In this document: in pieces, positions 1,769 to 63,851 of the stretch | Layout of the letters: each line of letters opens with the position of its first letter | Numbering within the stretch: the first letter of the stretch is position 1 | Assembly (NCBI GenBank): GCA_947630575.1 | Contig: CANRIB010000001.1 | Span: 6,085-70,084, forward strand | Length of the DNA stretch: 64,000 bases | Direction of reading: 5' to 3' | From: an uncultured Bacilli bacterium | GTDB taxonomy: Bacteria; Bacillota_I; Bacilli_A; RF39; UBA660 | Translations under genes and position numbers: made by a program | The notes under the pieces: model-generated | Told to the model about the DNA's origin: nothing | The model's input: only the letters and a program-made list of their open reading frames with translations | Database searches by the model: none

Positions 1769-1952
1769 GGGTTAATCTACTACGTTTAGGATATTTTTGT
1801 TTGAAGACCATCTATTCTTTGTGAATACGAATGGCAACCTCAACAACACGAACGTGAACAACACGAACATCGGTGTGCGCCCAATATCCTAGGATAACTC
1901 ATATATTTGGTTAAGGCTTGGTATAGTAGAACTAGGATACAAGATTAATCCT
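1769..1952 (+). ncRNA. Template-repeat-like cassette RNA A (5' part of the template diverged or truncated)
   Basis: Starts GGTTAATCT and ends AGATTAATCC, which is complementary to the start. 1821-1883 is homologous to the 3' half of the variable tails (AAC-rich, ends GGTGTGCGCCCA). A conserved 3' domain follows. No RBS or ORF. Confidence 0.6.
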
Positions 1953-1973
1953 TAAGTGTTACTTTAAAAAAAT

Positions 1974-2022
1974 AAATACTGATATTATATGTCTTGTATA
2001 TATAATTAAAACAGTATTTTTT
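1974..2022 (+). terminator. Long AT-rich hairpin plus T-run after cassette A
   Basis: AAATACTG ... CAGTATTT stem followed by TTTTT. The same design follows all five cassettes. Confidence 0.55.
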
Positions 2023-2085
2023 ATTTGATATTTTATTATATTTAGTAAAGTATAATTTTTATGATATAATTAAATGGGTTAATCT

Positions 2086-2288
2086 TAGTTTATGGGGTTC
2101 TTTTTAGTCTCCGTATAACTTTTATAACAACGGGTCTAGTCAGTATGCTAACGTGTTCTTTGTGAATTCGAGTGGCAACCTCAACAACAACCCCGTGAAC
2201 AACACGTATGGTGTGCGCCAATATCCTAGGACAACTCATATACTTGATTAAGGTTTAGTATAGTAGACTTAGGATACAAGATTAATCC
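2086..2288 (+). ncRNA. Template-repeat-like cassette RNA B (long form)
   Basis: TGATATAAT extended -10 sits about 7 nt upstream of GGGTTAATCT. The template segment 2107-2220 begins GTCTCCG and ends GTGTGCGCCA, one C short of the consensus, so it is frame-broken and non-coding. Conserved tail ends AGATTAATCC. Confidence 0.65.
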
Positions 2289-2311
2289 TTAAGGATTTCC
2301 TTAGAATATTT

Positions 2312-2358
2312 AATGTTGATATTTTATATCTAGTATATAAAATTATTACAACATTTTT
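2312..2358 (+). terminator. Hairpin terminator after cassette B (may also serve the convergent XRE gene)
   Basis: AATGTTG ... CAACATT stem plus TTTTT. It abuts the stop of the minus-strand CDS at 2357. Confidence 0.5.
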
Positions 2359-2818
2359 ATTTTGTTTTTAAATATTTAGGAGTATTAGTTCGACCTAAGA
2401 GATAGTCGGCAGAGATGTTATATTTTTTGCAGATAGCATAAAGAAAAGAGGTTGTTATTAGTGTTTTGCCACTTTCATAGGCTGCAATAACAGAGTGAGT
2501 TGTATTAAGTAGTTCTGCTAAATTAACTTGAGTAAGTTTATTTTCTTTGCGAAAATTTTTTAATCTTTCACCGGCAATGATTTTGTTTATATCTTTTTTA
2601 ATATTTTTATAATTATTGATATTTGTAAAATTAAACATTTTATCAAAAGATAAATTATAATAATTGCATAATGTATTTAAATGTTTAATGGGTATAATTT
2701 GTAGTTCTTTTTCATATCTAGCATATAGACTATTGCTTATATTTAGAATTTTGGCAACTTGAATTTGCGATAGGCCAATTCTTTCGCGAATATTTATTAA
2801 ATTTTTTCCATAATCCAT
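2357..2818 (-). CDS. XRE-family transcriptional regulator with two helix-turn-helix domains
   Basis: Two repeats of the Cro/C1-type HTH pattern (LSQIQVAKILNISNSLYARYE and LTQVNLAELLNTTHSVIAAYE). Confidence 0.75.
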   Translation of the reverse strand: MDYGKNLINIRERIGLSQIQVAKILNISNSLYARYEKELQIIPIKHLNTLCNYYNLSFDKMFNFTNINNYKNIKKDINKIIAGERLKNFRKENKLTQVNLAELLNTTHSVIAAYESGKTLITTSFLYAICKKYNISADYLLGRTNTPKYLKTK

Positions 2819-2950: not shown

Positions 2951-4384
2951 ATGATTGATAATAAGTCAATTATAAAGAAGGGAAGATTAATGAAAGTAGA
3001 GAGGTTAAGTAAAGGAAAAAGTAAGAGAATAATATTAGCTATAACAATAATAGTATTAGCAATAGGAATAATATATATAACAAATAGCAAAGCAAAATAT
3101 CAAGTAACCAAAAGTGTGCAAATAGTTAATGGTAATGTATCATATAGTCCATATGATTTTAAAATAATGGCTATGTATAAAAATGATGGAGGAGAAGATG
3201 CTCCCATAACAGAAATACCTGAAAATGGATATATGATAGACGAAACGAGGAGTTATTGTTTAAGAAATAATGAACAAATAAAGGGATTATTAAAAACAAT
3301 AAATGGCATTCACATCATATCTAAATTACATAGTAATGATAAATGTTATTTATGGTTTAATAAATCATTTACCGCTGAGGAACGAGTAACAGCTTTAGGC
3401 AAAACAACACAAACTGGCCAAATAAGTTTTGCAGAGTCAGATAAATCAGAACATAAAGATAGTAGTGACAATTCAATCATGTATAGTGGAACAGATAATG
3501 ATGGAATAACATATTACTTTAGAGGAGTAGTAAATGATAATTGGGTAAGATATGGAACTACAAGTGATAATAAAAGTATATGGTGGAGAATCGTTCGAAT
3601 AAATGGAGATGGCACAATAAGAATGATATATGCTGGAACAACAGATTTAAATTCAAATAATCCACCAGGAACAACAGGAACAGATACTCAAATAACAGTT
3701 GATGGAGAAAATACATTTCTTTATTCAAATTATGGATATGGAGATAATAAATATGTAGGCTATCAATATGCAGATAATAATGTACATGGAAAAGGAATAG
3801 ATAGCTATGCAGCAGATAGAGCAAATGAGTGGTTTAAAACAAATTTATTGGAAGAATGGAATAATGGCAATGGCAGAATAGATAATAATGCAGGATTTTG
3901 TGCAGATAGAACATCATATACAGATAATACAGGGACTTCCGAAGGAGGAGGAACCGGAACGACAACAACATATTATGCTGCTTATATAAGATTTCAAAAA
4001 GGGGGAAATTGGCAAAATCCGCAAAAACCAATATTCAAATGTACAAATACTAGTGATTTATTTACATATACAGGAGCAATAAATGGAACAAGGAGTTTAA
4101 CATATCCAGTAGGATTAATAACAGCAGATGAAGTAGTATATGCCGGAGGATTTGGAGGAAAAGATAATTATTCGTATTATTTATTTATAGGCAATGACTA
4201 TTGGACCATGTCTCCGTATTATTTTCGTGGTGCCTATGTTTACGTGTTCTATGTAAATCACAATGGCCAGCTCATTGGTAACCAAGTGAACTACAAGTAT
4301 GGTGTTCGCCCAGTAATAAATTTGAAGGCTGATACCCAATTTACAGGAAATGGAAAATCAGGAAGTCCATTTGTAGTACAATAA
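2951..4384 (+). CDS. Membrane-anchored surface protein, paralog T1, with C-terminal variable tail (alternative start ATG 2990)
   Basis: N-terminal TM segment. Central block YYFRG..NNWV..G....IWWRIVRINGDGTIRMIYAG is shared with the three paralogs. C-terminus reads GLITADEV.YAGG ... YWTMSP-[variable]-GVRPVINLKAD. Confidence 0.85.
   Translation: MIDNKSIIKKGRLMKVERLSKGKSKRIILAITIIVLAIGIIYITNSKAKYQVTKSVQIVNGNVSYSPYDFKIMAMYKNDGGEDAPITEIPENGYMIDETRSYCLRNNEQIKGLLKTINGIHIISKLHSNDKCYLWFNKSFTAEERVTALGKTTQTGQISFAESDKSEHKDSSDNSIMYSGTDNDGITYYFRGVVNDNWVRYGTTSDNKSIWWRIVRINGDGTIRMIYAGTTDLNSNNPPGTTGTDTQITVDGENTFLYSNYGYGDNKYVGYQYADNNVHGKGIDSYAADRANEWFKTNLLEEWNNGNGRIDNNAGFCADRTSYTDNTGTSEGGGTGTTTTYYAAYIRFQKGGNWQNPQKPIFKCTNTSDLFTYTGAINGTRSLTYPVGLITADEVVYAGGFGGKDNYSYYLFIGNDYWTMSPYYFRGAYVYVFYVNHNGQLIGNQVNYKYGVRPVINLKADTQFTGNGKSGSPFVVQ
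4208..4312 (+). other. Variable region VR1 (DGR-like) at the 3' end of T1
   Basis: ATGTCTCCG ... GGTGTTCGCCCA. A GC-rich island homologous to the cassettes. Encodes YYFRGAYVYVFYVNHNGQLIGNQVNYKY. Confidence 0.6.
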
Positions 4385-15097: not shown

Positions 15098-17086
15098 ATG
15101 TTAAGTAAGAAAAGAACAGTAATTATTGTAGAAATAATAATGGTAATACTTGCTATATCAATATTTGGAACTTTTGCTTTTTTATCGACAAGTGGTAAAC
15201 AAGAATTGGCCAATACTTTTACAGCAGGTTGTTTAAGTATAACCATAGAAGAAGAGGGAAGAGCAATTGATTTAGAAAATAGATATCCAGTAACAGATAT
15301 AGAAGGATTAGAACAAGAGGGATATACTTTTAAAATAAAGAATAATTGTAGTAATGATACAAATTATCAAATAAATTTAGAATCATTAAGTGATCCAACA
15401 GCAGATACAACATTAAAAGCCGATTATGTAAGAGTATCCCTTTCAAGTGATACAATGGATAATTTAATAACAACATTAAAAGAAAATGATGTAGCAACAT
15501 ATCATTCAGAAAATGCTTATGTATCTTATAATCTTTATAGTGGAATATTAAAAGGAAGTGCAAGTAAATCATTTACTTTAAAAGAATGGGTAGAATATAA
15601 TACAACCAAAGAAGAAGGAGCAAGTAAAGAATATAAATCACAGATAAATGTTGTAAGTGATACAAGAGTAGAAGTAACCCCAACACCAGAAGTAAAGTTT
15701 ACTTATAGTGATAAAAAATATACAGGAGTATTAACAGAAGAAGCATCAAATGTTAAATATTGTATGACAACAGATAATAAATGTGATGCAAATAAAGATA
15801 TAGAAGTAAGCAATAAAGAAATAACAATAGAGGCAGAAGAAAATGATAATAAACAAATGATATGTACTGAAATAGAAAATAAAACATATTGTAGTAATCC
15901 TGAATTAATAGAAAAAGTAAAACTATGTCCAGAAGGTTGGGATGCTTGTGAAACAATATTAGCCAATAGTGAAATAAAAGGACCAGTTGGAACAATAACA
16001 GGGCCGAGTTGTAATGGAGCAGCAGGAGACTCATCGTGTTATAGCAGTGATACTAAAAAGAATAATATGGGACAGAATGGAGTTTATGATACAGTAGATG
16101 ATTATGGTAAGACATATGTGTTTCGGGGTTTTGTTCAAAATAACTGGTTAAAGTTTGGCAAAGAAAATGGACAAGATATATGGTGGAGAATCATCCGAAT
16201 AAATGGTAATGGAACAATAAGATTAATATATGCTGGAAAGGGTAGTGTTGCTCCAAGTACTAAGACTGCGGATACTCAAATTGGTACTAGTACTTATAAT
16301 ACAAATTATAATGATAATAAATATGTAGGATTTATGTTTGGAACAGCATCAAATGGTAGTGCAAGTAGTGAAGGAACAGCAGGTACTACAGATGGAGCAA
16401 GAAACGGAACCAAGCCAGCCCATTTAAACAAATATGATAGTACTATAAAGGATAAATTAGATGCTTGGTGGGTAACAACAAATTTAGGGGATACTGACCA
16501 AGTAAAACATATAGATATAGAAACAGGATTTTGTAATGATAGAGAACCAGTAAAGTCTGCACATGGTAGTTATGGAACTACTACATACGGAAAAACTCAA
16601 GCAGGATATGCTCCGGCAGATAGAGTATGGCAAAGTGGAAGTACAAGTTATGATTCAACACAAGAACCAACATTAAAATGTGGCGATGATACATCACGTC
16701 AATATGATTTATTTACAGGTACTGATGCAAAAGGAGTTATGGTTGATGGAAAAACAATAGCAGGAAATAATGAATTAACCAATCCAGTAGGCTTAATAAC
16801 AATGGATGAAGTAATATATGCTGGAGGATTCGCAGGTGCAAATAACAATAATTATTGGTTATATACAGGTCAAGATTATTGGACAATGTCTCCGCGTGGC
16901 TTTGGTGACTACTGTGCTTACGTGTTCTATGTGGATTCGTATGGCTACCTCCACTACGACCGCGTGAACGACGCGTTGGGTGTGCGCCCAGTAATAAATC
17001 TGGAAGCTGATACAGTAATTGATACATTAAAGGGAGTAGATTTGGCAAATGGAGGAACTACAGATAATCCATACATAGTCAAATGA
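15098..17086 (+). CDS. Secreted/surface protein, paralog T2, with SipW-type signal peptide and C-terminal variable tail
   Basis: The N-terminus K-K-R...FGTFAFLSTSG...NTFTAG resembles the TasA/camelysin-class signal. The C-terminal roughly 330 aa are near-identical to T4 except for the variable tail. Confidence 0.9.
   Translation: MLSKKRTVIIVEIIMVILAISIFGTFAFLSTSGKQELANTFTAGCLSITIEEEGRAIDLENRYPVTDIEGLEQEGYTFKIKNNCSNDTNYQINLESLSDPTADTTLKADYVRVSLSSDTMDNLITTLKENDVATYHSENAYVSYNLYSGILKGSASKSFTLKEWVEYNTTKEEGASKEYKSQINVVSDTRVEVTPTPEVKFTYSDKKYTGVLTEEASNVKYCMTTDNKCDANKDIEVSNKEITIEAEENDNKQMICTEIENKTYCSNPELIEKVKLCPEGWDACETILANSEIKGPVGTITGPSCNGAAGDSSCYSSDTKKNNMGQNGVYDTVDDYGKTYVFRGFVQNNWLKFGKENGQDIWWRIIRINGNGTIRLIYAGKGSVAPSTKTADTQIGTSTYNTNYNDNKYVGFMFGTASNGSASSEGTAGTTDGARNGTKPAHLNKYDSTIKDKLDAWWVTTNLGDTDQVKHIDIETGFCNDREPVKSAHGSYGTTTYGKTQAGYAPADRVWQSGSTSYDSTQEPTLKCGDDTSRQYDLFTGTDAKGVMVDGKTIAGNNELTNPVGLITMDEVIYAGGFAGANNNNYWLYTGQDYWTMSPRGFGDYCAYVFYVDSYGYLHYDRVNDALGVRPVINLEADTVIDTLKGVDLANGGTTDNPYIVK
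16886..16990 (+). other. Variable region VR2 (DGR-like)
   Basis: ATGTCTCCG ... GGTGTGCGCCCA. Encodes RGFGDYCAYVFYVDSYGYLHYDRVNDAL. The flanks are near-identical to those of VR4. Confidence 0.7.
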
Positions 17087-17140
17087 CGAAGTATGGATTA
17101 GAATACACTTTTCAAGGAGTGTAGCGAGTTTAATTTGAAT

Positions 17141-17183
17141 CTCAAGTCTAAAAAATAATAAATATTAAGGCTTGAGTTTTTTT
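17141..17183 (+). terminator. Rho-independent terminator after T2
   Basis: CTCAAGTC ... GGCTTGAG stem followed by TTTTTTT. Confidence 0.6.
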
Positions 17184-28450: not shown

Positions 28451-28572
28451 AAAAAGCACACTAAGGCTTCAACTGGAGTATTAGTGTGCACAACCAAAAT
28501 ATGGAGTGTACTTAACCATACGAAAGTTAAGTATATCCTTTTTTATTTTATGTAAGTTTCCTTGACAGATAC

Positions 28573-28601
28573 ATAATAACATAAGAATGATTTTTTTTCA
28601 A
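28573..28601 (-). promoter_or_regulatory. Convergent (antisense) promoter of TA-like module 1
   Basis: Minus strand TTGAAA, 17 nt, TATTAT. Confidence 0.45.
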
Positions 28602-28691
28602 GGTGGTTTAATTATATATAAATGGTCAAATTAAATGATTTTATTAGTAATAAAGTTCCTTTTTATAAGCCATAAATGCCTTTGCTTTAAC

Positions 28692-28720
28692 TTGAATGAA
28701 GTATAAAAATTTGATATAAT
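28692..28720 (+). promoter_or_regulatory. Promoter of the toxin mRNA, TA-like module 2
   Basis: TTGAAT, 17 nt, TATAAT with a TG extension (TGATATAAT). Confidence 0.55.
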
Positions 28721-28786
28721 TTGTGATAGGGAATATCAGTTGTTGAGTGTCTACCAAATCTCTAAATAGAGAGGAGGTTTGATATA

Positions 28787-28879
28787 GTGAAAACTAAAAC
28801 TTTTATTTTAAGAGTTTTAAAATTCATATCTATCATTTTATTTCTTCTTATCATTATGATAGTAGTAATAAAAAAATGA
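28787..28879 (+). CDS. Putative type I toxin, 30-aa hydrophobic peptide
   Basis: GTG start 9 nt after GAGAGGAGG. Peptide MKTKTFILRVLKFISIILFLLIIMIVVIKK has one TM helix and a KK tail. The hairpin TCTCTA-AA-TAGAGA abuts the SD sequence. Confidence 0.5.
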   Translation: MKTKTFILRVLKFISIILFLLIIMIVVIKK

Positions 28880-28987
28880 CACTTAATTCACATAAGAATT
28901 AAATGTCATGCTTAAAGAAATTTAGGGTTGACATTCAACTATGCAAAACTGAATGTTCCCTTTTTATTTTATGCAAGTTTCCTTGAC
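28872..28987 (-). ncRNA. Putative antisense antitoxin RNA overlapping the toxin 3' UTR (ends approximate)
   Basis: Would start about 7 nt after the minus-strand -10 box (28994-28999). On the minus strand, the hairpin at 28880-28910 is followed by a T-run at the toxin stop codon. Confidence 0.4.
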
Positions 28988-28993
28988 ATATTC

Positions 28994-29022
28994 ATAATAT
29001 CATAAAAACAGCTCTTTTTCAA
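28994..29022 (-). promoter_or_regulatory. Convergent (antisense) promoter of TA-like module 2
   Basis: Minus strand TTGAAA, 17 nt, TATTAT with a TG extension. Confidence 0.5.
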
Positions 29023-29079
29023 GTGGGCTTATTTCTTTAAATTAGAAAAGCTTAATAAATGAATTAGTGGTGCTTGTTT

Positions 29080-31785
29080 TTATTTTTTCCTTTTTAATTC
29101 TACTCCTTTTTCTTCTTTCTCTATTAATTCCTCTAAACTAATATGGAAATTATGGGAAATACTTTCGATAAGTGCTTCTATTTGTTTATTAGTATCACTT
29201 TTACTTTTGTATTTAGTTAAACTACTAGTTAAACTATCAAAAGTACTGGTATTTAAAATTTTAAATAAACCATCTAAACTGTATCTATTACTTATAAAAG
29301 TAGTAAATTCCTCGATAATATATTTTTCTAAATCTTTATTAAAATTAAATTTTGTTATATTTTTTTTGATAATATCTTCATCATCTGTAATAGTAATTAT
29401 CCATCCTTTTGATGCTTTAACTTTCATTTCTTCTTTAACCCATTTGCCTTTAATATATTTTTTTATAATAAATTCAAGATAACCATTTTCATTTTTAAAA
29501 ATAAATAAACATTCTTTATAATTACCAAAACAAGCTTTTAGGCCAAGACTATTTTGTTCAAATTCTTCAAATATTGTATCTTCATAAAGTAAATCGGGGA
29601 GATATTTTTTATTTTCACTAATTTTTAGTCTACCATCAAAAATGAAACCAAAATTACCATTTGATGATTGAAAGGCATAAATAGAAGAATCTATTTCTTT
29701 TCCTTCATAAATAGCTCTATTATAATTCCAAATATGGCGATAATTATATTTAGAAGAGCCCACTATCCATTCTTCAAAACATCTATGATAAACTATTTTA
29801 TTGCGATATATTAAATATTTTTGTAAATCAAAATCGTTGGTTAAATTATCAATTATTTCATTATGATGACCATAATATAAAGAAATTGAAATATTGGGAC
29901 TATCACATATTTTAGTATAGTTTTCTTCGATACATAAACAATAATTACCATATTTAGTTGTTATATCAATATAGCTTCTATTTAAAAGATGATTAAAACT
30001 ATAAAAATTATCATAATATCGTTCTATATACATATTTCTATCAGGAATAAATTTTAAAATTCCATAAGCCGGAAAATCTCCCCATTTATTTTGGATGAAA
30101 GCTCTTTTATTATGAGTAACTGTTTCTTTTGTTGTTGTATTATAATAAGTTATTATATTTCCATCATTTTTATTTATTACAAAATCATTATTAAATGGTA
30201 TTTTGATATTATCTATTATAAAACATCTTTTTAATGTGGCTTCAAATAAATATGTACCTTTGTTTAATTTTTTAAAAGAATGGGGAAAAACTATATTTTT
30301 ATCTCTAGATAAATTCAATATTTTATTAATTATTAAATTTTCTTCTTTAGTTAAAAATTTAGATGAGCTTGGTAAGTTAATAATTTCTTTTAATCCTTCA
30401 GGTAAATAATAATAATCTTTATCAGGGTAAATATCTTTTTGTAATATTTCATAAAGTCTAGCATCATACTGGTAATTTAAAGCTAACATTATACGATAAA
30501 TAGTTTCTAAGGGTAGTTCTTCTTCAAAATAAAAAGAATGTAATTCACGAATAATATCTAAATTATAATATTTTGTATAATTTATTTTAAAGTTTTTTAG
30601 AAAATTAATTAAGGCTTGTTTACTGTTCATGGTAAGGCATAAATTAAAGAGATATTTACTTTTTAAGATAGCTTTTGTATCTATTATATCTGGGCTACTT
30701 TTTAAAATATTTAATATGACATCTATTTCGGATGATTTATTTAATTCGCCATTTCCTTTTACTAAATCTTCTATTTTTTTGTTTATAATATTACTATAGC
30801 AAAGAAACTCAAAATCATTAGTTTTTTTATTTATAATTACTTCACTGATACCATTTAGACTTAAAATTAAGACATTAAACTTTATTTGATAAAAATCTTT
30901 TAAGTCTTCTTTTGAGATTAAGTCTTTACCATATTCATAAAATAACCAATATTTTATTTCTAAAGGTTCTATTAGTTTCATTAATGTATCTTTATTATTG
31001 AAACTAAATTCTAAAGTACAAATATTATCTAACCTTTTTTTTAAACTTTGTCCTTCTTCTTTATGTTTATATACCCATTCTTCTAATTCTTTTTCAATGA
31101 TAGCTAGATCCATTAAATTATTACTTAAGGCTATATTTTTATTTAATATTATTTTAGCATATTCTATAAGTTTATCTTTTTTAATTTCAATTATTTTTTC
31201 TTTTTTATTTTCTTCATTTTCTTCTAGTTTGTAAGAGTATTTATCTAGATAACTACTAGTTTCTAAAATTAAAGCTTTTTCTTTTACTAAGTAGGTAATT
31301 AAAATATTACTTAAGTTATTTATTTCATTTTTTAAAGTCGCTTTTTTATTTTTGCTAATAAATTTATGACTTAAAAGTATTTCTTGAAGGGCAATTAAAT
31401 TGGCTGTTACTTTAAATGACTCGTTTTTAATAGTTTTTAAATACAAAATTAGTTTGCGAGTTTTTATTAAGTAATTTATTTTATCTTCAAGACTTATTTT
31501 TTCTATTTTATCATCATAATTTAAAATATTATTTAAAATTATATCTAAATACATCAGCATATTATTAATTAATTCTTTGTTATTAATATCTAAACTGGTA
31601 ATAAATCTTTTACTATTTATTTTAACGAGATATTCTTTTTTTACTTTATCAATTAAATTTAACATATCAGGATTGTTTATATAATTTTCGCGAGTGGGAA
31701 GAGGGAACAAACTATTTAAGGGAATTATATCAATATTATTATTTGAGTTCTTAATTAGTTTTTTTAATAAAGCGATAATATTCAT
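29080..31785 (-). CDS. Large hypothetical protein (901 aa), orphan
   Basis: Uninterrupted 2.7-kb ORF. Very Lys/Asn/Ile-rich with no motif I recognise. No YxDD or NTPase motifs seen. Confidence 0.7.
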   Translation of the reverse strand: MNIIALLKKLIKNSNNNIDIIPLNSLFPLPTRENYINNPDMLNLIDKVKKEYLVKINSKRFITSLDINNKELINNMLMYLDIILNNILNYDDKIEKISLEDKINYLIKTRKLILYLKTIKNESFKVTANLIALQEILLSHKFISKNKKATLKNEINNLSNILITYLVKEKALILETSSYLDKYSYKLEENEENKKEKIIEIKKDKLIEYAKIILNKNIALSNNLMDLAIIEKELEEWVYKHKEEGQSLKKRLDNICTLEFSFNNKDTLMKLIEPLEIKYWLFYEYGKDLISKEDLKDFYQIKFNVLILSLNGISEVIINKKTNDFEFLCYSNIINKKIEDLVKGNGELNKSSEIDVILNILKSSPDIIDTKAILKSKYLFNLCLTMNSKQALINFLKNFKINYTKYYNLDIIRELHSFYFEEELPLETIYRIMLALNYQYDARLYEILQKDIYPDKDYYYLPEGLKEIINLPSSSKFLTKEENLIINKILNLSRDKNIVFPHSFKKLNKGTYLFEATLKRCFIIDNIKIPFNNDFVINKNDGNIITYYNTTTKETVTHNKRAFIQNKWGDFPAYGILKFIPDRNMYIERYYDNFYSFNHLLNRSYIDITTKYGNYCLCIEENYTKICDSPNISISLYYGHHNEIIDNLTNDFDLQKYLIYRNKIVYHRCFEEWIVGSSKYNYRHIWNYNRAIYEGKEIDSSIYAFQSSNGNFGFIFDGRLKISENKKYLPDLLYEDTIFEEFEQNSLGLKACFGNYKECLFIFKNENGYLEFIIKKYIKGKWVKEEMKVKASKGWIITITDDEDIIKKNITKFNFNKDLEKYIIEEFTTFISNRYSLDGLFKILNTSTFDSLTSSLTKYKSKSDTNKQIEALIESISHNFHISLEELIEKEEKGVELKRKK

Positions 31786-31958
31786 AACATTACTCCTAGA
31801 GATTTATATTATAAAGCTTTATTATTTTATTTGCAAGTAAATAAAAATTAGAACATTAGTGATAAGGTAAAAAAGTAGAGGTGATAATTCTAAAAAGAAA
31901 TAATCCTATATCTTTATAAAGCTTAGGTTTTTACATCTATAAGCGCCGTTGTTTTATC

Positions 31959-31987
31959 TTGAGGAAAGTATAAAAATTTGATATAAT
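31959..31987 (+). promoter_or_regulatory. Promoter of TA-like module 3
   Basis: TTGAGG, 17 nt, TATAAT (TGATATAAT). Repeat of 28692-28720. Confidence 0.45.
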
Positions 31988-32046
31988 TGAAATAGGGAAT
32001 ATCAGTTGTTGAGTGTCTACCAAATCTCTAAATAGAGAGGAGGTTT

Positions 32047-32145
32047 GAAGAAAAGAAAAATAGAACTTTTTATTATAAAAGTTCTAAATTCATTACTATC
32101 ATTTTATTTCTCCTAATCAATTTGATAGTAGTAATAAAAAAATGA
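32047..32145 (+). pseudogene. Type I toxin-like ORF copy lacking a canonical in-frame start
   Basis: The frame ending in ...KFITIILFLLINLIVVIKK-stop is homologous to 28787-28879. Indels relative to that copy remove the GTG start. Confidence 0.3.
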
Positions 32146-32253
32146 TACTCATTCGCTAGAATAAGTGCCTAAACAATTTATTTTGGGTAGACATTCAACT
32201 ATGCAAAACTGAATGTTCCCTTTTTATTTTATGCAAGTTTCCTTGACATATTC

Positions 32254-32282
32254 ATAATATCATAAAAACAACTTTTTTTCAA
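32254..32282 (-). promoter_or_regulatory. Convergent (antisense) promoter of TA-like module 3
   Basis: Minus strand TTGAAA, 17 nt, TATTAT. Confidence 0.45.
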
Positions 32283-32344
32283 GTGGGCTTATTACTTTAA
32301 TAAAAGCTAATACTTTTCTGTTATTTATATTAAGAGGTAAAATT

Positions 32345-32373: not shown

Positions 32374-32447
32374 TGGTGCTGAATGACTGAATTGAACAGT
32401 CCTTTGAAGCTTACCATGCTTCCGTTCTACCACTAAACTAAATCAGC
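32374..32447 (-). tRNA. tRNA-Thr (anticodon GGU), CCA encoded
   Basis: Hand-folded cloverleaf. Acceptor stem GCTGATT/ATTCAGC has one T-T mismatch. D arm GTTT/GAAC. Anticodon stem GAAGC/GCTTC with loop ATGGTAA. T arm GACTG-TTCAATT-CAGTC. 3' end ACCA. Confidence 0.75.
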
Positions 32448-33732: not shown

Positions 33733-36099
33733 ATGAAATTTAAAATAACACCTAAAGATTTTTTGATTTTTTGTTTGTATTGTGTTTTATTATTGTATTT
33801 ATGTGCAATAGCAGTGCTTAATTTTTCTTCTTTTTTGAATGATGGAAAGTTTTATGGATTGTTACCATTTAAAGCTTTTACAGGAGATTATATTGTTTTA
33901 ACTTTGTTTATGTTTTTTATTTCTTTAGTTATTATTTTTACAAGTGTTTCTTCATATGTGTTTAATAGAGAAAAGGGGAAAGGATTAGGTATAAAATTAG
34001 GGGAAAAAACAGAAAGTGGTTATGCTAGATGGAGTACAGAAAAAGAAATTAAAACTGATGTAGGAATGGCAAAAGTTGATCCTAAAGCAGAAACTGTTAA
34101 TGCAGCGGGTATTCCTTTAATTAATAATGGAAAAGAAATTTGGGTTGATAATGGAGAATATCATAATTTAGTTATAGGTTCTACGGGTTCAGGTAAAACT
34201 CAGACTGTTGTTAAGCCAATGGTTAATTTACTTGCTAAAAAGGGTGAATCAATGATTATTACAGACCCTAAAGGTGAAATATATAAATATGCGGCAACCG
34301 CGTTAAAAGAAAGAGGATATAAAATTATTGTGCTTAATTTTAGAGAGCCTAATCATGGAAATGCTTGGAATCCTCTTACCCTTCCTTATCGTTATTTTAA
34401 AGAAGGAAATACAGATAAATCAACAGAGTTATTAGATGACGTAGCTTTAAATATTTTATATGATCAATCTAAAAAAGGGGGAGATTCAGAGTTTTGGGAG
34501 AAGAGTGCAGCAGATTATTTTTCAGGTTTAGCTTTAGGTTTATTTTATGATGCAAAAGAAAAAGAAGTTAATTTAAATAGTATTAATTATATGAGTACGA
34601 TTGGAGAAGAAAGATATGCAACTTCAACATATATTAAAGAATATTTTAATATGAAAGGACAAGATTCTAGTCCATATATATTTGCATCAAATACAATTAA
34701 TGCACCAAATGAAACTAGAGGAGGTATTTTATCTACTTTTAGACAAAAGATTAGACTTTTTTCTTCACGAGAAAGTTTAAGTGAAATGCTTGCCTATAGT
34801 GATTTTGATATGGCAAGTATAGGTAAAGAAAAAACAGCAGTATTTATGATTATTCATGATGAAAAGAAAACTTATCATGCTTTAATGACAATATTTATTA
34901 AACAATGTTATGAAACATTGATAGATGTGGCTCAAGAAAATGGAGGGAAACTTCCTTTTAGAACTAATTTTATCTTAGATGAGTTTGCTAATATGCCCCC
35001 ACTTAAAGATGTTGATTCAATGGTAAGTGCAGCGCGTTCAAGAGATATTAGATTTACTTTTATTATTCAAAACTTTGCCCAGTTAAATGATGTTTATGGA
35101 AAAGAAGTAGGAGAAATTATAAAAGGTAACTGTGGTAATTTAGTTTATTTGATATCTACAGAACTTGCAGCATTAGAAGAGATTTCAAAAATGTGTGGGG
35201 AAGTTAAATCTAAAGAAAAAGATAAGACAGTTTCAACACCTTTAGTAACTGTATCAGATTTACAGAAATTAAAATTATTTGAAGCAATTATTATTCGTTT
35301 GAGAAAAAATCCTTTTAGAACAAAGTTAAAACCAGATTTTGAAATGAATTGGGGGATGAATAGAGAAGAAGCTCCATATCCAGAAAGAGAAATTAAGAAA
35401 ATTGAATTATTTGATGTTAAAAATTATGTAACTGAAGAACGTCGTAAACAAATGATGAATAATTTAGAAAATAAAGATATGGATAATCCTTTTGCTAATC
35501 CATTTACTAATCCGTTTGGGCCAAGTAGTTCTTCAACATCATTTGGGGGAATGGGAAGTGTATCACCAATTGGTTCTAATCCTTTTAGTGGTGCTCCAAG
35601 TTCTATTCCAAATTCGGGAGCTTCACCATTTAGTCATAATCCAATGTTTGATAAGCCAATGAGTAGTTTATCAGATGCCGATATAGATGCAATGATGAAA
35701 GATATTGATAGAAGACTTAAAGAACTTGATGAAGAAGAAGCTAGAGAAAATGCTAAATTGGAAGAAAAGAAAAATAATTCCGATAATTTAGTAACTAATC
35801 CATTACAAAGTAGGGAAGAAAATAAAGAGGATACTTTAGAACAAAAATTTATTACAGAGAATCCTATTAAAGAACAACCAATTAATGAAGATAAAAAAAT
35901 AGAAGAAGTTAATGATAGTTCTTTGAAGCAAGAAGTTAAACCAAGTATTTTAGAACAAGATAATAAAATAGATACTCAACCTATAAACCAAGAAGGAAAT
36001 CAAGATAAACCAAAAATAAATGTGGATGCTGATAGTATCATTGTTAATGAAAATGTAGTTACTGATGATGAGTTCTTTGATGATTTCTTTAATGAATAA
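33733..36099 (+). CDS. VirD4/TraG-family type IV coupling protein-like ATPase with low-complexity C-terminal tail
   Basis: Two N-terminal TM helices, Walker A GSTGSGKT, TDPKGE, and Walker B FILDEFANMP. C-terminal NPF/Ser/Pro-rich and acidic tail. Confidence 0.8.
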   Translation: MKFKITPKDFLIFCLYCVLLLYLCAIAVLNFSSFLNDGKFYGLLPFKAFTGDYIVLTLFMFFISLVIIFTSVSSYVFNREKGKGLGIKLGEKTESGYARWSTEKEIKTDVGMAKVDPKAETVNAAGIPLINNGKEIWVDNGEYHNLVIGSTGSGKTQTVVKPMVNLLAKKGESMIITDPKGEIYKYAATALKERGYKIIVLNFREPNHGNAWNPLTLPYRYFKEGNTDKSTELLDDVALNILYDQSKKGGDSEFWEKSAADYFSGLALGLFYDAKEKEVNLNSINYMSTIGEERYATSTYIKEYFNMKGQDSSPYIFASNTINAPNETRGGILSTFRQKIRLFSSRESLSEMLAYSDFDMASIGKEKTAVFMIIHDEKKTYHALMTIFIKQCYETLIDVAQENGGKLPFRTNFILDEFANMPPLKDVDSMVSAARSRDIRFTFIIQNFAQLNDVYGKEVGEIIKGNCGNLVYLISTELAALEEISKMCGEVKSKEKDKTVSTPLVTVSDLQKLKLFEAIIIRLRKNPFRTKLKPDFEMNWGMNREEAPYPEREIKKIELFDVKNYVTEERRKQMMNNLENKDMDNPFANPFTNPFGPSSSSTSFGGMGSVSPIGSNPFSGAPSSIPNSGASPFSHNPMFDKPMSSLSDADIDAMMKDIDRRLKELDEEEARENAKLEEKKNNSDNLVTNPLQSREENKEDTLEQKFITENPIKEQPINEDKKIEEVNDSSLKQEVKPSILEQDNKIDTQPINQEGNQDKPKINVDADSIIVNENVVTDDEFFDDFFNE

Positions 36100-36975: not shown

Positions 36976-38415
36976 ATGAAAAGGATAATTTTAGTAATAG
37001 TAGGAATACTAGGTGTTTTTGGTGTAGTTTTATTGTTTGGAAGAGAAGAGAATAAAAGTGTTTATTTGACAAATAAAGAATTAAAAGAAAATAATTATAT
37101 AGCGGTTATGATAGAACAAGAAGATGGAAATTATCAGGAACAAGATAATATACCACAAACTGGGTATGCACTAAATGAAAGCAAAAGTACATGTAGTAAT
37201 GGAGCAAAACCAACATGGGTAGATAATAGATTAAAATTAAGTAATTTAACAAGTGACAATACAAGTTGTTTTTTGTATTTTGATAAAGGATTAGCAACAA
37301 AATTGGTTGATAGTTTAGGACTGACGACAAAAAAAGGACAAGATGGATTTACAGACATGGATACAGAAGAACATACAGATGAAAATGAGAAATCAATATT
37401 ATATAGTGATGAAGATGATTTAGGAACAACATATTATTTTAGAGGAAAAGTAAAAGACAATTGGGTAAAATTTGGCAAAGAAAATGGTCAAGATATATGG
37501 TGGAGAATCATTCGAATCAATGGCAATGGTTCAATAAGAATGATATATACAGGAACGGGAACAACTGCACCAACAACAGATGGATATTTAAATAATAATA
37601 CAACAAAAAGTCAGTTAAATAGTGGAAGTACAACAACTTTTAAATATAATGAATACTATAATGATAATAAATATGTAGGATATATGTATGGGACTCAGAA
37701 AACAGGTAGTGCTGGTAGTGAAACTACACCAACGACTAGTTATGCCCAAGCTCATGCAAATAATTATGATAGTGATATAAAAAAACAACTAGATACTTGG
37801 TATAGTACTAATTTAAAAAATGAATATGGACAATATATAGACCCAGATGCAGGATTTTGTAATGATAGAAAAACAGCAACAATGAGTAGAAGTGGGTATG
37901 GAACATTAGGATATGGAAAAAATGCAACGGCATATGCAGCAGGAGATAGATTACTAGATACAAGTTGGAATGCTAATACAAAACATACACCAACATTCAA
38001 GTGTAGTCAAACAGAAGATACATTCACACTTCCAGGAGCAAAAAAACCAGATGGAAGTTATTATGGAAATCATAAATTAAGAGCTAATAATGGGTCAGGT
38101 GATAATAGTCCAATAGGATTGATAACAATAGATGAGGCTGTATTTGCTGGAGGGTATTATTATAGATCAAGTAATCAATCTGACAATAAACAATTTTACT
38201 TATATACAGGCCAGAATTATTGGATAATGTCTCCGTCTTACTTTGACGGCAGCAATGCTAGCGTGTTCTATGTGAGTTACGATGGCCACCTCGGCGGCTA
38301 CAACTACGTGTGCAGCACGAATGGTGTGCGCCCAGTAATAAATCTGAAGGCTGATACAAAATTATCAGGAGATGGAACACACACTAATCCATATGTAGTA
38401 GAAGGAGCTAATTAA
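36976..38415 (+). CDS. Membrane-anchored surface protein, paralog T3, with C-terminal variable tail
   Basis: N-terminal TM segment, the shared central block (YYFRGKVKDNWVKFGKENGQDIWWRIIRINGNGSIRMIYTG), and C-terminal YWIMSP-[variable]-GVRPVINLKAD. Confidence 0.9.
   Translation: MKRIILVIVGILGVFGVVLLFGREENKSVYLTNKELKENNYIAVMIEQEDGNYQEQDNIPQTGYALNESKSTCSNGAKPTWVDNRLKLSNLTSDNTSCFLYFDKGLATKLVDSLGLTTKKGQDGFTDMDTEEHTDENEKSILYSDEDDLGTTYYFRGKVKDNWVKFGKENGQDIWWRIIRINGNGSIRMIYTGTGTTAPTTDGYLNNNTTKSQLNSGSTTTFKYNEYYNDNKYVGYMYGTQKTGSAGSETTPTTSYAQAHANNYDSDIKKQLDTWYSTNLKNEYGQYIDPDAGFCNDRKTATMSRSGYGTLGYGKNATAYAAGDRLLDTSWNANTKHTPTFKCSQTEDTFTLPGAKKPDGSYYGNHKLRANNGSGDNSPIGLITIDEAVFAGGYYYRSSNQSDNKQFYLYTGQNYWIMSPSYFDGSNASVFYVSYDGHLGGYNYVCSTNGVRPVINLKADTKLSGDGTHTNPYVVEGAN
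38227..38334 (+). other. Variable region VR3 (DGR-like)
   Basis: ATGTCTCCG ... GGTGTGCGCCCA. Encodes SYFDGSNASVFYVSYDGHLGGYNYVCSTN. Best local match is cassette D. Confidence 0.7.
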
Positions 38416-38416
38416 T

Positions 38417-40432
38417 ATGAAAGATAAGAATAAAAGATTATATATATTAGTATCTATTCTATTAATAGGAGTAGGATTGACATTTGCATATTTTGTAGGA
38501 AAAACTATTTTTAAGGGAACAGGAGCAACAACAGAGGGAAGAACGGCAACCGTAAATGGTTCCACATTAGATATAAGTGGTAATATAGAGTTTGGTGATA
38601 AAGATATATATCCAGGACATCAAACATTATCCAAAGTAATAGCAACTGCAACAGGTAATAATGAACTTATCGCGTATAACTTAACATGGATAGGAACAAA
38701 TAATTTAAATACTAATTTAAAATATAAAGTATATGTATCAGAAGAAGAAAAAGAAATAAGTTTAACTTGTGAAAAGAAAAAGAAAGTAGTAAATGGAGCC
38801 CAACAATTAAATGAGGTATGTATAATAAATGGAGAATTAGGAGAACCAATAAATGAAGGAGAGATACCATCAAAACCAAAAGAAGAACAAACAATAAAGA
38901 TAACTAATACAGAATTTATAACATCAAAGAAAACAGGAACAATAAAATATTATTATATCATAGTAGAATATCCAGATAATGGAGATCAAAGTATAGATAT
39001 AGGAGAAGGATTTGAAGGAAAAGTATATGGAGAGATAAGTAATACAAAAGCCGATATAAATATAATAAGTGTAAATGTAGAGGGAGAAGATGGGAAATAT
39101 ACAAAACAAAGTGAAATACCAAAACAAGATAGTAATTTAACACTAAATACAAGTGATAGTCATTGTACAAATGATGCAACATTAGAATGGGATAATAGTG
39201 ATAGGAGTTTAATAGTAAATAATCTAACACAAAGTGGAACAGATTGTGAATTATATTTTTATGAGCCGACACCAGAAAAGACATTAAAAAAATTAGGAAT
39301 ATCAGAATCCGATGGAGTTATAACAGATATTACAGGTCCAAGTTGTAGTGGAAGTACTTCTTCGTCATGTTATAGTGGTGACTCTAGTCATAAAAATATG
39401 GCTCAAAATGGAATATATGATACAGTGGATGATTATGGAAAGAGCTATGTATATCGCGGTTTTGTTCAAAATAACTGGTTAAAGTTTGGCAAAGAAAATG
39501 GACAAGATATATGGTGGCGAATCATCCGAATAAATGGCAATGGAACAATAAGATTAATATATGCTGGAAAGGGTAGTACTGCTCCAAGTACTACGACTGC
39601 GGATACTCAAATTGGTACTAGTGCTTATAATACAAATTATAATGATAATAAATATGTAGGATTTATGTTTGGAACAGCATCAAATGGTAGTGCAAGTAGT
39701 GAAGGAACAGCAGGTACTACAGATGGAGCAAGAAACGGAACCAAGCCAGCCCATTTAAACAAATATGATAGTACTATAAAGGATAAATTAGATGCTTGGT
39801 GGGTAACAACAAATTTAGGGGATACTGACCAAGTAAAACATATAGATATAGAAACAGGATTTTGTAATGATAGAGAACCAGTAAAGTCTGCACATGGTAG
39901 TTATGGAACTACTACATACGGAAAAACTCAAGCAGGATATGCTCCGGCAGATAGAGTATGGCAAAGTGGAAGTACAAGTTATGATTCAACACAAGAACCA
40001 ACATTAAAATGTGGCGATGATACATCACGTCAATATGATTTATTTACAGGTACTGATGCAAAAGGAGTTATGGTTGATGGAAAAACAATAGCAGGAAATC
40101 ATGCATTAACCAATCCAGTAGGCTTAATAACAATGGATGAAGTAATTTATGCTGGAGGATTCGCAGGTGCAAATAACAATAATTATTGGTTATATACAGG
40201 TCAATATTATTGGACAATGTCTCCGTCTTGCTTTTATAACAGCGGGTCTAGTCAGTATGCTCGGGTGTTCATTGTGACTACGGATGGCAACCTCAACGAC
40301 CCGAACGTGAACAGCTCGAGCATCGGTGTGCGCCCAGTAATAAATCTGAAGGCTGATACAGTAATTGATACATTAAGGGGAGGAGATTTGGCAAATGGAG
40401 GAACTACAGATAATCCATACATAGTCAAATGA
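38417..40432 (+). CDS. Secreted/surface protein, paralog T4, with SipW-type signal peptide and C-terminal variable tail
   Basis: Starts 1 nt after the T3 stop. N-terminus ...GVGLTFAYFVGKT. C-terminal two-thirds are near-identical to T2 outside the variable tail. Confidence 0.9.
   Translation: MKDKNKRLYILVSILLIGVGLTFAYFVGKTIFKGTGATTEGRTATVNGSTLDISGNIEFGDKDIYPGHQTLSKVIATATGNNELIAYNLTWIGTNNLNTNLKYKVYVSEEEKEISLTCEKKKKVVNGAQQLNEVCIINGELGEPINEGEIPSKPKEEQTIKITNTEFITSKKTGTIKYYYIIVEYPDNGDQSIDIGEGFEGKVYGEISNTKADINIISVNVEGEDGKYTKQSEIPKQDSNLTLNTSDSHCTNDATLEWDNSDRSLIVNNLTQSGTDCELYFYEPTPEKTLKKLGISESDGVITDITGPSCSGSTSSSCYSGDSSHKNMAQNGIYDTVDDYGKSYVYRGFVQNNWLKFGKENGQDIWWRIIRINGNGTIRLIYAGKGSTAPSTTTADTQIGTSAYNTNYNDNKYVGFMFGTASNGSASSEGTAGTTDGARNGTKPAHLNKYDSTIKDKLDAWWVTTNLGDTDQVKHIDIETGFCNDREPVKSAHGSYGTTTYGKTQAGYAPADRVWQSGSTSYDSTQEPTLKCGDDTSRQYDLFTGTDAKGVMVDGKTIAGNHALTNPVGLITMDEVIYAGGFAGANNNNYWLYTGQYYWTMSPSCFYNSGSSQYARVFIVTTDGNLNDPNVNSSSIGVRPVINLKADTVIDTLRGGDLANGGTTDNPYIVK
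40217..40336 (+). other. Variable region VR4 (DGR-like, long form)
   Basis: ATGTCTCCG ... GGTGTGCGCCCA. Encodes SCFYNSGSSQYARVFIVTTDGNLNDPNVNSSSI. The 5' part matches cassette B and the 3' part matches cassette A. Confidence 0.75.
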
Positions 40433-40684
40433 CGAAGTATGGATTAGTAAACACTTTTCAAGGAGTGTAGCGTGGTGCTATCAATTTGATTCTCAAACCT
40501 AGATAGCATTTGAATTAAGCAAATAAATGAGGTTTAAGTTTTCTTTTTAAATTTTGGTGGGAATAACAATGTAGCAGTTATTCTCTTTTTTTGTAAATAA
40601 AATTATTAGTACTTGCATATTTTTGCTATATGTGATATATTTTAATTGTACTAGTGCATGTAATACAATAAAGGAGGAGATTAA

Positions 40685-46946: not shown

Positions 46947-47149
46947 GGTTAATCTGTTTAAGTGTATTGGTATTAGTCTTTGTATAACGCTGACTCTGAT
47001 GGTTATGCTCGCGTGTTCATTGTGAATTCGACTGGCAACCTCAACACCAACAACGTGAACAACACGTGGGGTGTGCGCCCAATATCCTTTTTAAAACTCA
47101 TATATCTGGTTAAGGCTTGGTATAGTAGAACTAGGATACAAGATTAATC
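46947..47149 (+). ncRNA. Template-repeat-like cassette RNA C
   Basis: TGATATAATTATAAT precedes GGTTAATCT. The template segment 46976-47081 starts GTCTTTG instead of GTCTCCG and ends GGTGTGCGCCCA. Conserved tail ends AGATTAATC. Confidence 0.65.
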
Positions 47150-47174
47150 ATTGGTTTTAGGACTTAAAAAAAAT

Positions 47175-47220
47175 AATGCTGATATTATTTATCTTGAATA
47201 AGTAATTATTACAGCATTTT
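47175..47220 (+). terminator. Hairpin terminator after cassette C
   Basis: AATGCTG ... CAGCATT stem plus TTTT. Confidence 0.55.
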
Positions 47221-47279
47221 TATTTTGGAAGTAATACTTCATTGACCAAAAAATGGCTATTTTGTTATATTGACCCTAA

Positions 47280-63238: not shown

Positions 63239-63432
63239 GGTTAATCTATTATCTCGTGACATGTCTCCGTATAACTTTAACGGCAGCAATGCTAACGTGT
63301 TCTATGTGAATTCGAATGGCAACCTCGGCAACAACAACGTGAACAACACGAATGGTGTGCGCCCAATATCCTTGAATACCTCATATATCTGGTTAAGGCT
63401 TGGTATAGTAGAACTAGGATACAAGATTAATC
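63239..63432 (+). ncRNA. Template-repeat-like cassette RNA D
   Basis: -10 boxes (TATATAATTATAAT) precede GGTTAATCT. In the template segment 63261-63365, 13 of 35 codons are AAC/AAT in the target frame. Conserved tail ends AGATTAATC. Confidence 0.7.
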
Positions 63433-63455
63433 TTTAGTAGTTTACTAAAATAAAT

Positions 63456-63505
63456 GATGCTGATATTATTTATCTTGAATAAGTAATTATTACAGCATCT
63501 TTTTT
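63456..63505 (+). terminator. Hairpin terminator after cassette D
   Basis: GATGCTG ... CAGCATC stem plus TTTTTT. Confidence 0.6.
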
Positions 63506-63534
63506 GATGGTAGTAAGTGTGATATAATTATAAT

Positions 63535-63729
63535 GGTTAATCTATTTTGGTTAGTTAGTCTCCGCGTAACTTTGATGGCAGCAATGCTAACGTGTTCTAT
63601 GTGTCTTCGGATGGCTACCTCAACAACAACACCGTGAACAACACGAGTAATGGTGTGCGCCCAATATCCTAAAGAAACTCATATACTTGATTAAGGTTTA
63701 GTATAGTAGGCTAGGATACAAGATTAATC
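63535..63729 (+). ncRNA. Template-repeat-like cassette RNA E
   Basis: GTGATATAATTATAAT precedes GGTTAATCT. Template segment is 63558-63663. Conserved tail ends AGATTAATC. Confidence 0.7.
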
Positions 63730-63754
63730 ATTAGTTTAAAAACTTAAAAAATAT

Positions 63755-63802
63755 AGTATTGATATTATATGTCTTAGTATATATAATTATAACAATATTT
63801 TT
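63755..63802 (+). terminator. Hairpin terminator after cassette E
   Basis: AGTATTG ... CAATATT stem (one G-U pair) plus TTTTT. Confidence 0.5.
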
Positions 63803-63851
63803 GATAATTGTTAATAAATTAGAAAAGTGATAAAATTAGATTAGAGGAGGT

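Follow-up and report, generated by a model that had tools for sequence, protein, structure and literature searches.

Variable regions of paralogous genes in an uncultured Bacilli genome and a dispersed family of putative template-RNA genes that may rewrite them

We analysed a 64-kb stretch of DNA from an uncultured Bacilli bacterium (contig CANRIB010000001.1, positions 6,085 to 70,084), referred to below as the window, which has 26.5% G+C, a strong skew of G over C and nearly all of its genes on the + strand. Two of these genes, T2 (15098..17086, +, 662 aa) and T4 (38417..40432, +, 671 aa), are near-identical on both sides of a short variable region (VR) that differs between them in sequence and in length, VR2 being 103 nt (16888..16990, +) and VR4 118 nt (40219..40336, +). 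Two paralogues carry VRs of their own: T1 (2951..4384, +, 477 aa), with a diverged VR1 at 4210-4312 (103 nt), and T3 (36976..38415, +, 479 aa), directly upstream of T4, with VR3 at 38229-38334 (106 nt). The reading that we favour, with a probability of about 0.7, is that these VRs are rewritten by mutagenic retrohoming of the type carried out by diversity-generating retroelements (DGRs), from a dispersed family of stand-alone template-RNA genes. Five members of this family, cassettes A-E, lie in intergenic DNA of the window as AAC-rich copies of VR sequence, and a sixth (F) was found on another contig of the same genome (L215), next to a fifth target gene, T5.

A preliminary description of this DNA had proposed that T2 and T4 match closely around a hypervariable patch, and had named evenly spread divergence as the outcome that would contradict it. 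Global alignment and ungapped identity counts bore the proposal out, since the divergence is concentrated in the patch. Over the ~930 nt at the 5' end of each gene, up to about position 16031, the sequences are unrelated: ungapped identity is 28%, and every 50 columns of the heavily gapped alignment contain 24-32 matches. The genes converge across 16031-16120 (72-80% identity), and identity then reaches 98.4% between 16121-16887 and 39452-40218 (12 mismatches in 767 nt), including a perfect run of 476 nt at 16293-16768 with zero mismatches. After the VR, 16991-17130 and 40337-40476 differ at 8 of 140 positions (94% identity). This 3' stretch crosses the stop codon (17084-17086 in T2) and 44 nt of 3' flank, beyond which identity drops abruptly to 32%. 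The whole common module spans 16031..17130 (+) in T2 and 39362-40476 in T4, and its copies are separated outside the VRs by 20 single-nucleotide polymorphisms (SNPs), 12 upstream and 8 downstream. VR2 and VR4, on the other hand, differ at 32 of 103 aligned columns and by 12-nt and 3-nt indels. The reported continuation of the match into the 3' flank (44 nt, to 17130/40476) is correct, whereas the near-identical T4 copy starts at about 39451 and not at 39460; the lengths measured from GTCTCCG to GCGCCCA, 103 nt in VR1 and VR2, 106 nt in VR3 and 118 nt in VR4, are as claimed. That the flanks are homogeneous is a matter of ordinary recombination, or of duplication of the C-terminal module, and stands apart from the template mechanism, and repeat collapse or polishing during assembly may have exaggerated the flank identity. 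Because the flanks are 98-100% identical while the VR lengths differ, the rewriting of at least one of VR2 and VR4, from a template of another length, would be more recent than the homogenisation of the tails.

The cassettes are all on the + strand and are scattered among housekeeping genes. Cassette D (63239..63517) has a 103-nt template at about 63261-63366 and stands in tandem with cassette E (63535..63814), whose template is 106 nt long, as is that of cassette C (46947..47234). Cassette B (2077..2372) has a template of 114-115 nt that contains an insert of 12 nt, GGGTCTAGTCAG, and lacks one C in the GC-rich end (GCGCC-A). These lengths agree with those first described; a fifth cassette, A (1770..2035), had been overlooked. 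It appears to be a short template-RNA gene, truncated at the 5' end, with a template that is homologous only from TTCTTTGTG on, over about 70 nt. Adenines in the templates fall almost only at codon positions 1-2, for example 15/15/1 in D. A 5' anchor ATGTCTCCG and a 3' anchor GGTGTGCGCCCA are common to the VRs and to in-frame templates of different lengths; the 3' anchor is present in VR2-4 and in four of the five cassettes, B lacking one C, and VR1 reads GGTGTTCGCCCA at this place. Immediately after this GC-rich boundary the VRs read GTAATAAA and the cassettes ATATCC, an arrangement like the initiation-of-mutagenic-homing site of DGRs.

Mismatches between VRs and cassettes are concentrated at cassette adenines and change to all three other bases, as in DGRs. 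They number 12 at adenines out of 14 between VR3 and D (2 at other bases, plus one extra AAY-derived codon in VR3), 20 out of 27 between VR2 and D (7 at other bases; Fisher p=2.7e-8) and 13 out of 15 between VR4 and a mosaic of B and A (2 at other bases; p=2.2e-6), with Fisher p from 5.5e-6 to 2.7e-8 over the three comparisons. In another metagenome-assembled genome (MAG; L072/L066), a VR and a cassette differ at 9 adenine sites and 1 other site. That the patch is a DGR-type variable region, as the preliminary description had it, is supported by this fall of mismatches to AAC-rich cassettes on template adenines. VR1 shows no such bias against any window cassette (against D, 12 adenine and 17 other mismatches, p=0.15), and it may be inactive or derived from a cassette outside those seen.

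VR4 is the clearest case of a composite. Its 12-nt insert GGGTCTAGTCAG is otherwise found only in B among the window cassettes, and a 3-nt insert near its 3' end (AGCATC, from AACATC) otherwise only in A. A switch from B to A near GTGTTC leaves 2 non-adenine mismatches and no gaps, compared with 9 non-adenine mismatches and 4 gap columns against B alone; when VR4 was compared pairwise with every fetched cassette, the best single match was the B orthologue of a related species (contig L038), with 4 non-adenine mismatches and 3 gap positions. VR4 therefore appears best explained as B-type in its 5' part and short A-type in its 3' part. VR2 has the 103-nt length class of D, and its parent probably lies among the cassettes outside the window. 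Five switches between cassettes would account for VR2 with zero non-adenine mismatches, but we regard a mosaic of this kind as overfitting. The earlier suggestion that whole template variants are exchanged is accordingly upheld in part: in-frame templates of several lengths and the B and A inserts of VR4 speak for it, while VR2 is without an exact parent and the exchange is deduced from one genome.

Outside their templates, the cassettes share about 150 nt of conserved RNA scaffold. An alignment of 96 cassettes, from the window and from genome contigs, was examined with RNAalifold and by explicit pair counts. Helix P1 (9 bp) pairs a 5' GGUUAAUCU with AGAUUAAUC downstream of the template, and helix P2 (6 bp, UAUCCU/AGGAUA) starts one base after the template end; both are invariant and present in all 96. 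The homology between VRs and cassettes stops one base before the P2 duplex. Helices P3 and P4 and a long terminator-like hairpin, P5, show abundant compensatory changes. Paired cells make up 97% of the alignment, compared with 32-48% when the partners are slid, and compensatory change was counted in 24 pairs across 460 cells, a level reached by 0 of 500 shuffles. In cassette D (+ strand), the alignment and the minimum free energy (MFE) fold place P1 at 63239-63247 with 63424-63432 and P2 at 63367-63372 with 63416-63421, and covariation and the MFE fold place P3 at 63386-63405, P4 at 63436-63446 and P5 at 63456-63499. The MFE fold of the single sequence of D yields P1-P5 by itself (z=-2.25). 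The same architecture is kept in all five window cassettes, and 68 of 95 cassettes have a TAnAAT box at positions -12 to -7 relative to their first G. From these features each cassette looks like an independent gene for a structured RNA, and we infer that it is transcribed. In Rfam, the sole window match at gathering score was a tRNA, and the cassette region gave only a chance match to mir-6 (E=0.6). A variant end was seen in L033, L055 (1039-1335), L067 and L071, where a longer GC-rich hairpin, for example GACCTGTCAAGCGCCCAACAGGC, stands before AATATCC instead of GGTGTGCGCCCA.

The positions of P1 and P2 recall the RNA of the Bordetella phage DGR, which needs a 'stop' duplex between upstream and downstream sequence, a primer duplex between the template repeat (TR) and the spacer, and a stem-loop just after the TR; there the stop duplex halts cDNA synthesis and the TR:spacer duplex positions the priming adenosine, and similar elements have been predicted in 207 DGRs (bioRxiv 10.1101/2023.10.23.563531). 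By position, P1 would correspond to the stop duplex and P2 to the template:primer duplex.

An 18-mer of the P2/P1 region matches 95 stretches in GTDB genomes, nearly all of them from uncultured low-GC Bacilli, 'Mycoplasma sp. CAG:776' or 'Tenericutes' gut MAGs. The same search gave 18 further true loci in metagenomes and no cassette in viral collections. The count comes to at least 110 cassettes from about 40 MAGs of low-GC gut Bacilli, with 6-12 or more per MAG. Since the template length between the anchors is in frame in 72 of 75 cassettes and falls into at least 10 length classes, whole-codon length variation is a trait of the family. Twelve of the 96 aligned cassettes are without the 5' anchor, as judged by a sequence-pattern match, and a short cassette is present in a relative (L029) at the site syntenic to A, with other short ones elsewhere. 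The 1-nt-deleted GC-rich end of B also recurs in other genomes, and an orthologue of B is present in L038. Between template D and its orthologue in L044 there is a single difference in 103 positions, against an identity of about 90% in the DNA around them. L044 (2149-2400 and 3998-4274), which comes from the closest related species, keeps D at the site near rpmA and has no E in tandem with it; 1.8 kb away from D there is a different, short cassette. Cassette content thus turns over between species.

These observations suggest the following order of events. T2 and T4 would be genes for surface proteins, and their putative ligand-binding C-terminal module (~335 codons) would, together with 44 nt of 3' flank, have been copied recently from one to the other by recombination, onto unrelated N-terminal halves. 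A reverse transcriptase (RT) acting in trans would bind the invariant P1/P2 core of any cassette RNA, prime at P2, copy the template with random insertion opposite adenine and stop cDNA synthesis at P1, and the cDNA would replace the homologous VR segment of any T gene by way of the anchors ATGTCTCCG and GGTGTGCGCCCA. A full-length cassette would reset the whole VR, including its length, and a short cassette only the 3' ~70 nt. Any cassette could then rewrite all or the 3' part of any VR, because the anchors are shared, the lengths differ by whole codons and some cassettes are 5'-truncated. The different lengths of VR2 and VR4 would mean that T2 and T4 were last rewritten from different cassettes, after their tails had been homogenised.

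Several results weigh against this scheme, some of which concern the enzyme. Scans for RTs covered the window, 95 genome loci and 109 metagenome loci. No RT was found in the 64-kb window by YxDD motif scans, by tblastn with Brt or with a profile of six DGR RTs, and about 880 kb of genome and metagenome sequence surrounding 121 cassette loci likewise yielded no DGR-type RT or Avd. The only RT near any T homologue is of the retron type and has an msr/msd-like RNA. As for the templates, VR2 has no exact parent among A-E (7 non-adenine mismatches to D or E) and VR1 none among the window cassettes. P1 and P2 were partly selected by the search pattern and filter and, being invariant, lie outside the covariation test, and a generic scan for promoters and terminators was uninformative in AT-rich DNA of 26% GC. 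On the side of the proteins, T2 matches Pfam DUF6273 below threshold (17.8 bits, E=0.003, residues 586-636), and a Foldseek search of the T2 model against PDB gave nothing significant, with C-type lectins at E ~1-3. Finally, contigs from other samples, probably of the same strain, have VR1, VR2 and VR4 identical to the window and show no VR change.

A tblastn search with BPP-1 Avd against the window and the loci gave only noise, a weak test as Avd is short and divergent. In a database search with the RT profile, none of the best 120 of 7,235 RTs was tied to this lineage, and the scans of the loci gave only a chance hit, to a group II intron RT on L159. The scans of the window and the loci show that the RT is unlinked to templates or targets and do not imply that it is absent genome-wide, because only about 20 kb was sampled per genome. 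We infer that the enzyme is a trans-acting RT, most likely of the DGR clade, encoded elsewhere. Exact-protein look-ups brought out RTs similar to that of retron Ec107 (PADLOC E ~1e-117) in two cassette-bearing genomes (L220, 15967-16899, and L224, 6001-6939, JAMPHW01). They are 61% identical and share a conserved site, parAB ... abgT - RT - ychF. Upstream of the RT in L220 an a1/a2-like inverted repeat, AAAGCAGTA ... TACTGCTTT, was read by eye, and no obvious effector gene is adjacent. Such syntenic conservation is unusual for a defence retron. Given its PQG-type motif, its own a1/a2-flanked RNA and its relatives in ordinary Clostridia, we do not take this RT for the DGR enzyme and treat it as a bystander. 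Hypermutation by something other than a DGR-clade RT, either a retron-type RT or another polymerase, with a YhcG-like nuclease possibly serving as integration factor, seems to us improbable, and a normal DGR RT encoded far from templates and targets is much more likely than a non-DGR enzyme.

Gene conversion at the DNA level, in which cassettes would be copied into VRs through the shared anchors with no RNA or RT, as in the pilE/pilS and vlsE systems, would agree with several dispersed cassettes having conserved flanks, with the mosaic look of VR4 and VR2 and with the lack of an RT near any cassette, and the T2/T4 flanks do show homologous recombination between paralogues. However, gene conversion copies faithfully, and here the mismatches strongly favour cassette adenines, with changes to each of the three other bases. 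The cassettes are also built of AAY codons, and a DNA donor would have no need of the -10 box, the terminator or the covarying RNA structure (~150 nt) that they carry. The end of the VR homology just before P2 speaks against it as well; we consider this explanation very unlikely. An ordinary DGR with a single active template, perhaps one beside the RT and outside the window, in which the other cassettes would be decaying duplicates and the VR length differences indels older than the homogenisation, is unlikely too. In its favour, canonical DGRs have one TR, none of the window cassettes is an exact parent of VR2 or VR1, and A is truncated while B has lost 1 nt from its GC-rich end. Against this stand the full RNA architecture of all five cassettes and of at least 110 in about 40 genomes, with compensatory changes, the in-frame lengths in 72 of 75, and the recurrence in other genomes of short cassettes (also at a syntenic site) and of 1-nt-deleted ends. 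Moreover, VR3 matches D and VR4 matches B and A, so that at least two or three cassettes have been used, and with flanks that are 98-100% identical the 15-nt length difference must be the younger event, unless two conversion tracts ended exactly at the VR borders.

The tail identity of T2 and T4 or the placement of their VRs might also be an artefact of assembly, through repeat collapse, multi-mapped polishing or chimeric joining. The perfect run of 476 nt exceeds short reads, and two short-read contigs of other assemblies, L098 and L099, start inside the repeat. L098 (ENA ERZ27249118, 1-1100, compared with 16127-17145 and 39458-40560) has at the T4 locus all T2-type SNPs and VR2, and passes over to the T4 downstream flank within an identical stretch of 64 nt; this junction is either a real conversion between paralogues or a short-read assembly chimera. 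L099, an independent contig of another assembly, has VR4 joined to the unique downstream DNA of T4, as in the window. The two copies also differ by 20 SNPs outside the VRs and in their unique 5' halves and 3' flanks, and length-variable VRs in near-identical modules are likewise seen in T5 and its homologue in a related species. An artefact is, in our estimation, highly improbable. Three other ENA assemblies have contigs that match the window at 99.9-100% identity outside the T2/T4 repeat, and contigs of this kind speak neither for nor against ongoing VR change. On balance, we retain DGR-type rewriting from dispersed template-RNA genes as the preferred reading.

The target genes T1-T4, taken from the list of open reading frames (ORFs), were recognised as paralogues by BLASTP, with N-terminal membrane or signal anchors and a common C-terminal module. 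T2 has a membrane or signal anchor, a unique N-terminal half and a C-terminal module that is probably DUF6273 / C-type-lectin-like, and only this last part (~335 codons) is common to T2 and T4. The N-terminal half of T4 resembles those of T1 and T3, and that of T2 is of another type, found also in P0223. Because the two halves differ in type, the near-identical tail would be a module recently copied onto different N-terminal halves. DUF6273 lies over the VR region above the Pfam cut-off (23.5 bits) in T1 (24.1 bits) and T3 (25.5 bits). This domain is C-type-lectin-like and recurs in DGR targets of gut phages (PMC10743442). The AlphaFold model of the T2 module had a mean confidence score (pLDDT) of 81.6, and its best Foldseek matches were phage DUF6273 proteins with E 2e-4 to 6e-2, at modest template-modelling (TM) scores of 0.25-0.31. 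In the protein collection the T family counts more than 2,700 proteins, and almost all clusters are singletons; no T homologue was found among INPHARED phages, and IMG/VR had one contig with a T relative, without RT or cassette. T5 and its closest homologue in a related species are about 85-90% identical in the module, as read by eye from BLASTP, and 65% over the full length, and their VRs differ by two codons.

Some further features of T2 and T4 were observed. Their N-termini (15098-15400 and 38417-38700; for example GTFAFLSTSGKQELANTFTAG) resemble a SipW-type signal and a camelysin/TasA-like start, and the N-terminus of T2 matches Pfam Peptidase_M73 below threshold (E=0.007); judging from these sequences, the proteins may be subunits of surface fibres. 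In the 120 nt just upstream of the VR, the only T2/T4 differences are at 16769, 16773, 16816 and 16874 (A/C, A/C, A/T and G/T). Three of these are adenines in T2, three of the four are at codon positions 1-2, and no cassette template covers any of the four. About 75 nt past the VR, the T2 stop codon is spanned by an inverted repeat of 17 nt (88% complementary, arms 17065-17081 / 17084-17100). An identical one is present in T4 at 40411-40446, with weaker ones near the stops of T1 and T3, and this repeat could be a terminator or a target-recognition cruciform.

Two types of neighbouring gene recur at these loci. Between cassettes A/B and T1, and divergently upstream of T1, is a double helix-turn-helix (HTH) gene of the XRE type (2357..2818, -; two Pfam HTH_3 domains). 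A similar gene precedes T5 (L215, 374-655) and T homologues (L220, 8809-9851; L223, 9229-9768), the arrangement of HTH and T gene being seen in L215, L216, L220 and L223, and HTH homologues occur at 25 of 121 cassette loci. Its product is a candidate regulator of the target genes. A gene for a YhcG/DUF1016 nuclease of the PDDEXK type (47280-48203; PADLOC PDC-S02, a candidate defence family, E=4e-70) starts 46 nt after cassette C. YhcG homologues are likewise present at 25 of the 121 loci, including L017, L020, L027, L052, L060, L061, L092 and L220, most of them within ~0.15-1.2 kb of a cassette. They are 46-66% identical over the full length, apart from one 96% fragment from the window's own strain. 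One MAG, CAMMXG01, has three pairs of YhcG gene and cassette, and the gene in L220 stands between a cassette and a cassette-like 5' motif. This proximity could reflect a functional linkage or a shared residence in variable hotspots.

Elsewhere in the window, a 901-aa ORF (29080-31785, -), within 28499-32300, has no match in Pfam or PADLOC and is flanked on both sides by direct repeats, spaced at about 3.26 kb (28661-28883 / 31928-32149 and 28920-29040 / 32180-32300), the second of which has a third copy at 28499-28619. A tRNA gene (32377-32447, -) lies near these repeats, and a gene for a TraG/VirD4-type coupling protein (33733-36099) is located just upstream of T3/T4.

If the proposed scheme is true, DGR diversification goes beyond adenine substitution within one template of fixed length. 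A genome could keep as a library in-frame templates that are interchangeable, vary in length or are partial, and mix them across several receptor-like genes, and variation in loop length and in modules would add to point mutation. It would also be natural evidence for a DGR template RNA as a free-standing, trans-acting small-RNA gene, a design now being engineered for directed evolution, for which this family supplies a compact conserved scaffold of ~150 nt with more than 100 natural variants. Pipelines that start from the RT look for repeats only around it (PMC8144416) and would for this reason miss unlinked templates, so that DGR activity in reduced-genome gut Bacilli may be under-counted. 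Should the enzyme turn out not to be of the DGR type, this would be a new class of RNA-templated gene rewriting that combines length-variable and partial templates.

In its TR/VR relations the cassette system appears to work like a DGR, and it departs from the canonical architecture, a single TR adjoining the RT near the target, with cassettes in the window at 1.8, 2.1, 47.0, 63.2 and 63.5 kb. The DGR of phage BPP-1 (mtd VR, avd, TR, spacer, brt) carries its VR in the 3' end of a gene for a lectin-like receptor-binding protein, as the T genes would if their module has this fold. It is alike in having an AAC-rich template, mismatches at template adenines and a shared GC-rich 3' end at which homology stops, and, going by position, a similar enclosing duplex followed by a primer duplex and a stem-loop. 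In BPP-1, however, a single TR sits in an avd-TR-brt operon beside the target, whereas here at least 5-6 templates per genome are scattered, each with its own promoter-like box and terminator, length-variable or truncated and none of them next to an RT. It is known that avd, TR and brt act in trans and that targets can be remote (PMC5758913), and the chromosomal DGRs of Treponema denticola and of 'Lineage 4' (PMC5758913) resemble the present case in that one system serves several scattered targets; in those DGRs only the target side is multiple and the single TR adjoins the RT, while here the template side is also a dispersed multigene family. More than one template per element is shared with the DGRs that have two or more TRs (53 cases), but these are rare, have their TRs inside RT-centred cassettes and are treated as oddities or removed (PMC11661182).

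Neisseria pilE/pilS and Borrelia vlsE are similar in their many dispersed donors, shared flanking anchors and mosaic, length-variable segments at the expression site. The donors in those systems consist of faithfully copied DNA and not of genes for structured RNAs. The present system does not show such faithful copying of promoterless DNA cassettes; in contrast, its changes are adenine-specific and its donors look like RNA genes. In the literature that we searched, no dispersed family of autonomous template-RNA genes unlinked to an RT, with length-variable and truncated members, was described. There is also a likeness to the engineered systems DGRec and the DGR reconstituted in E. coli, in which the template RNA is reported to come from a separate locus and to be retargeted to chosen genes. 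Those systems are artificial and use one template at a time, and the cassettes described here, if our reading is true, would be a natural version with many templates.

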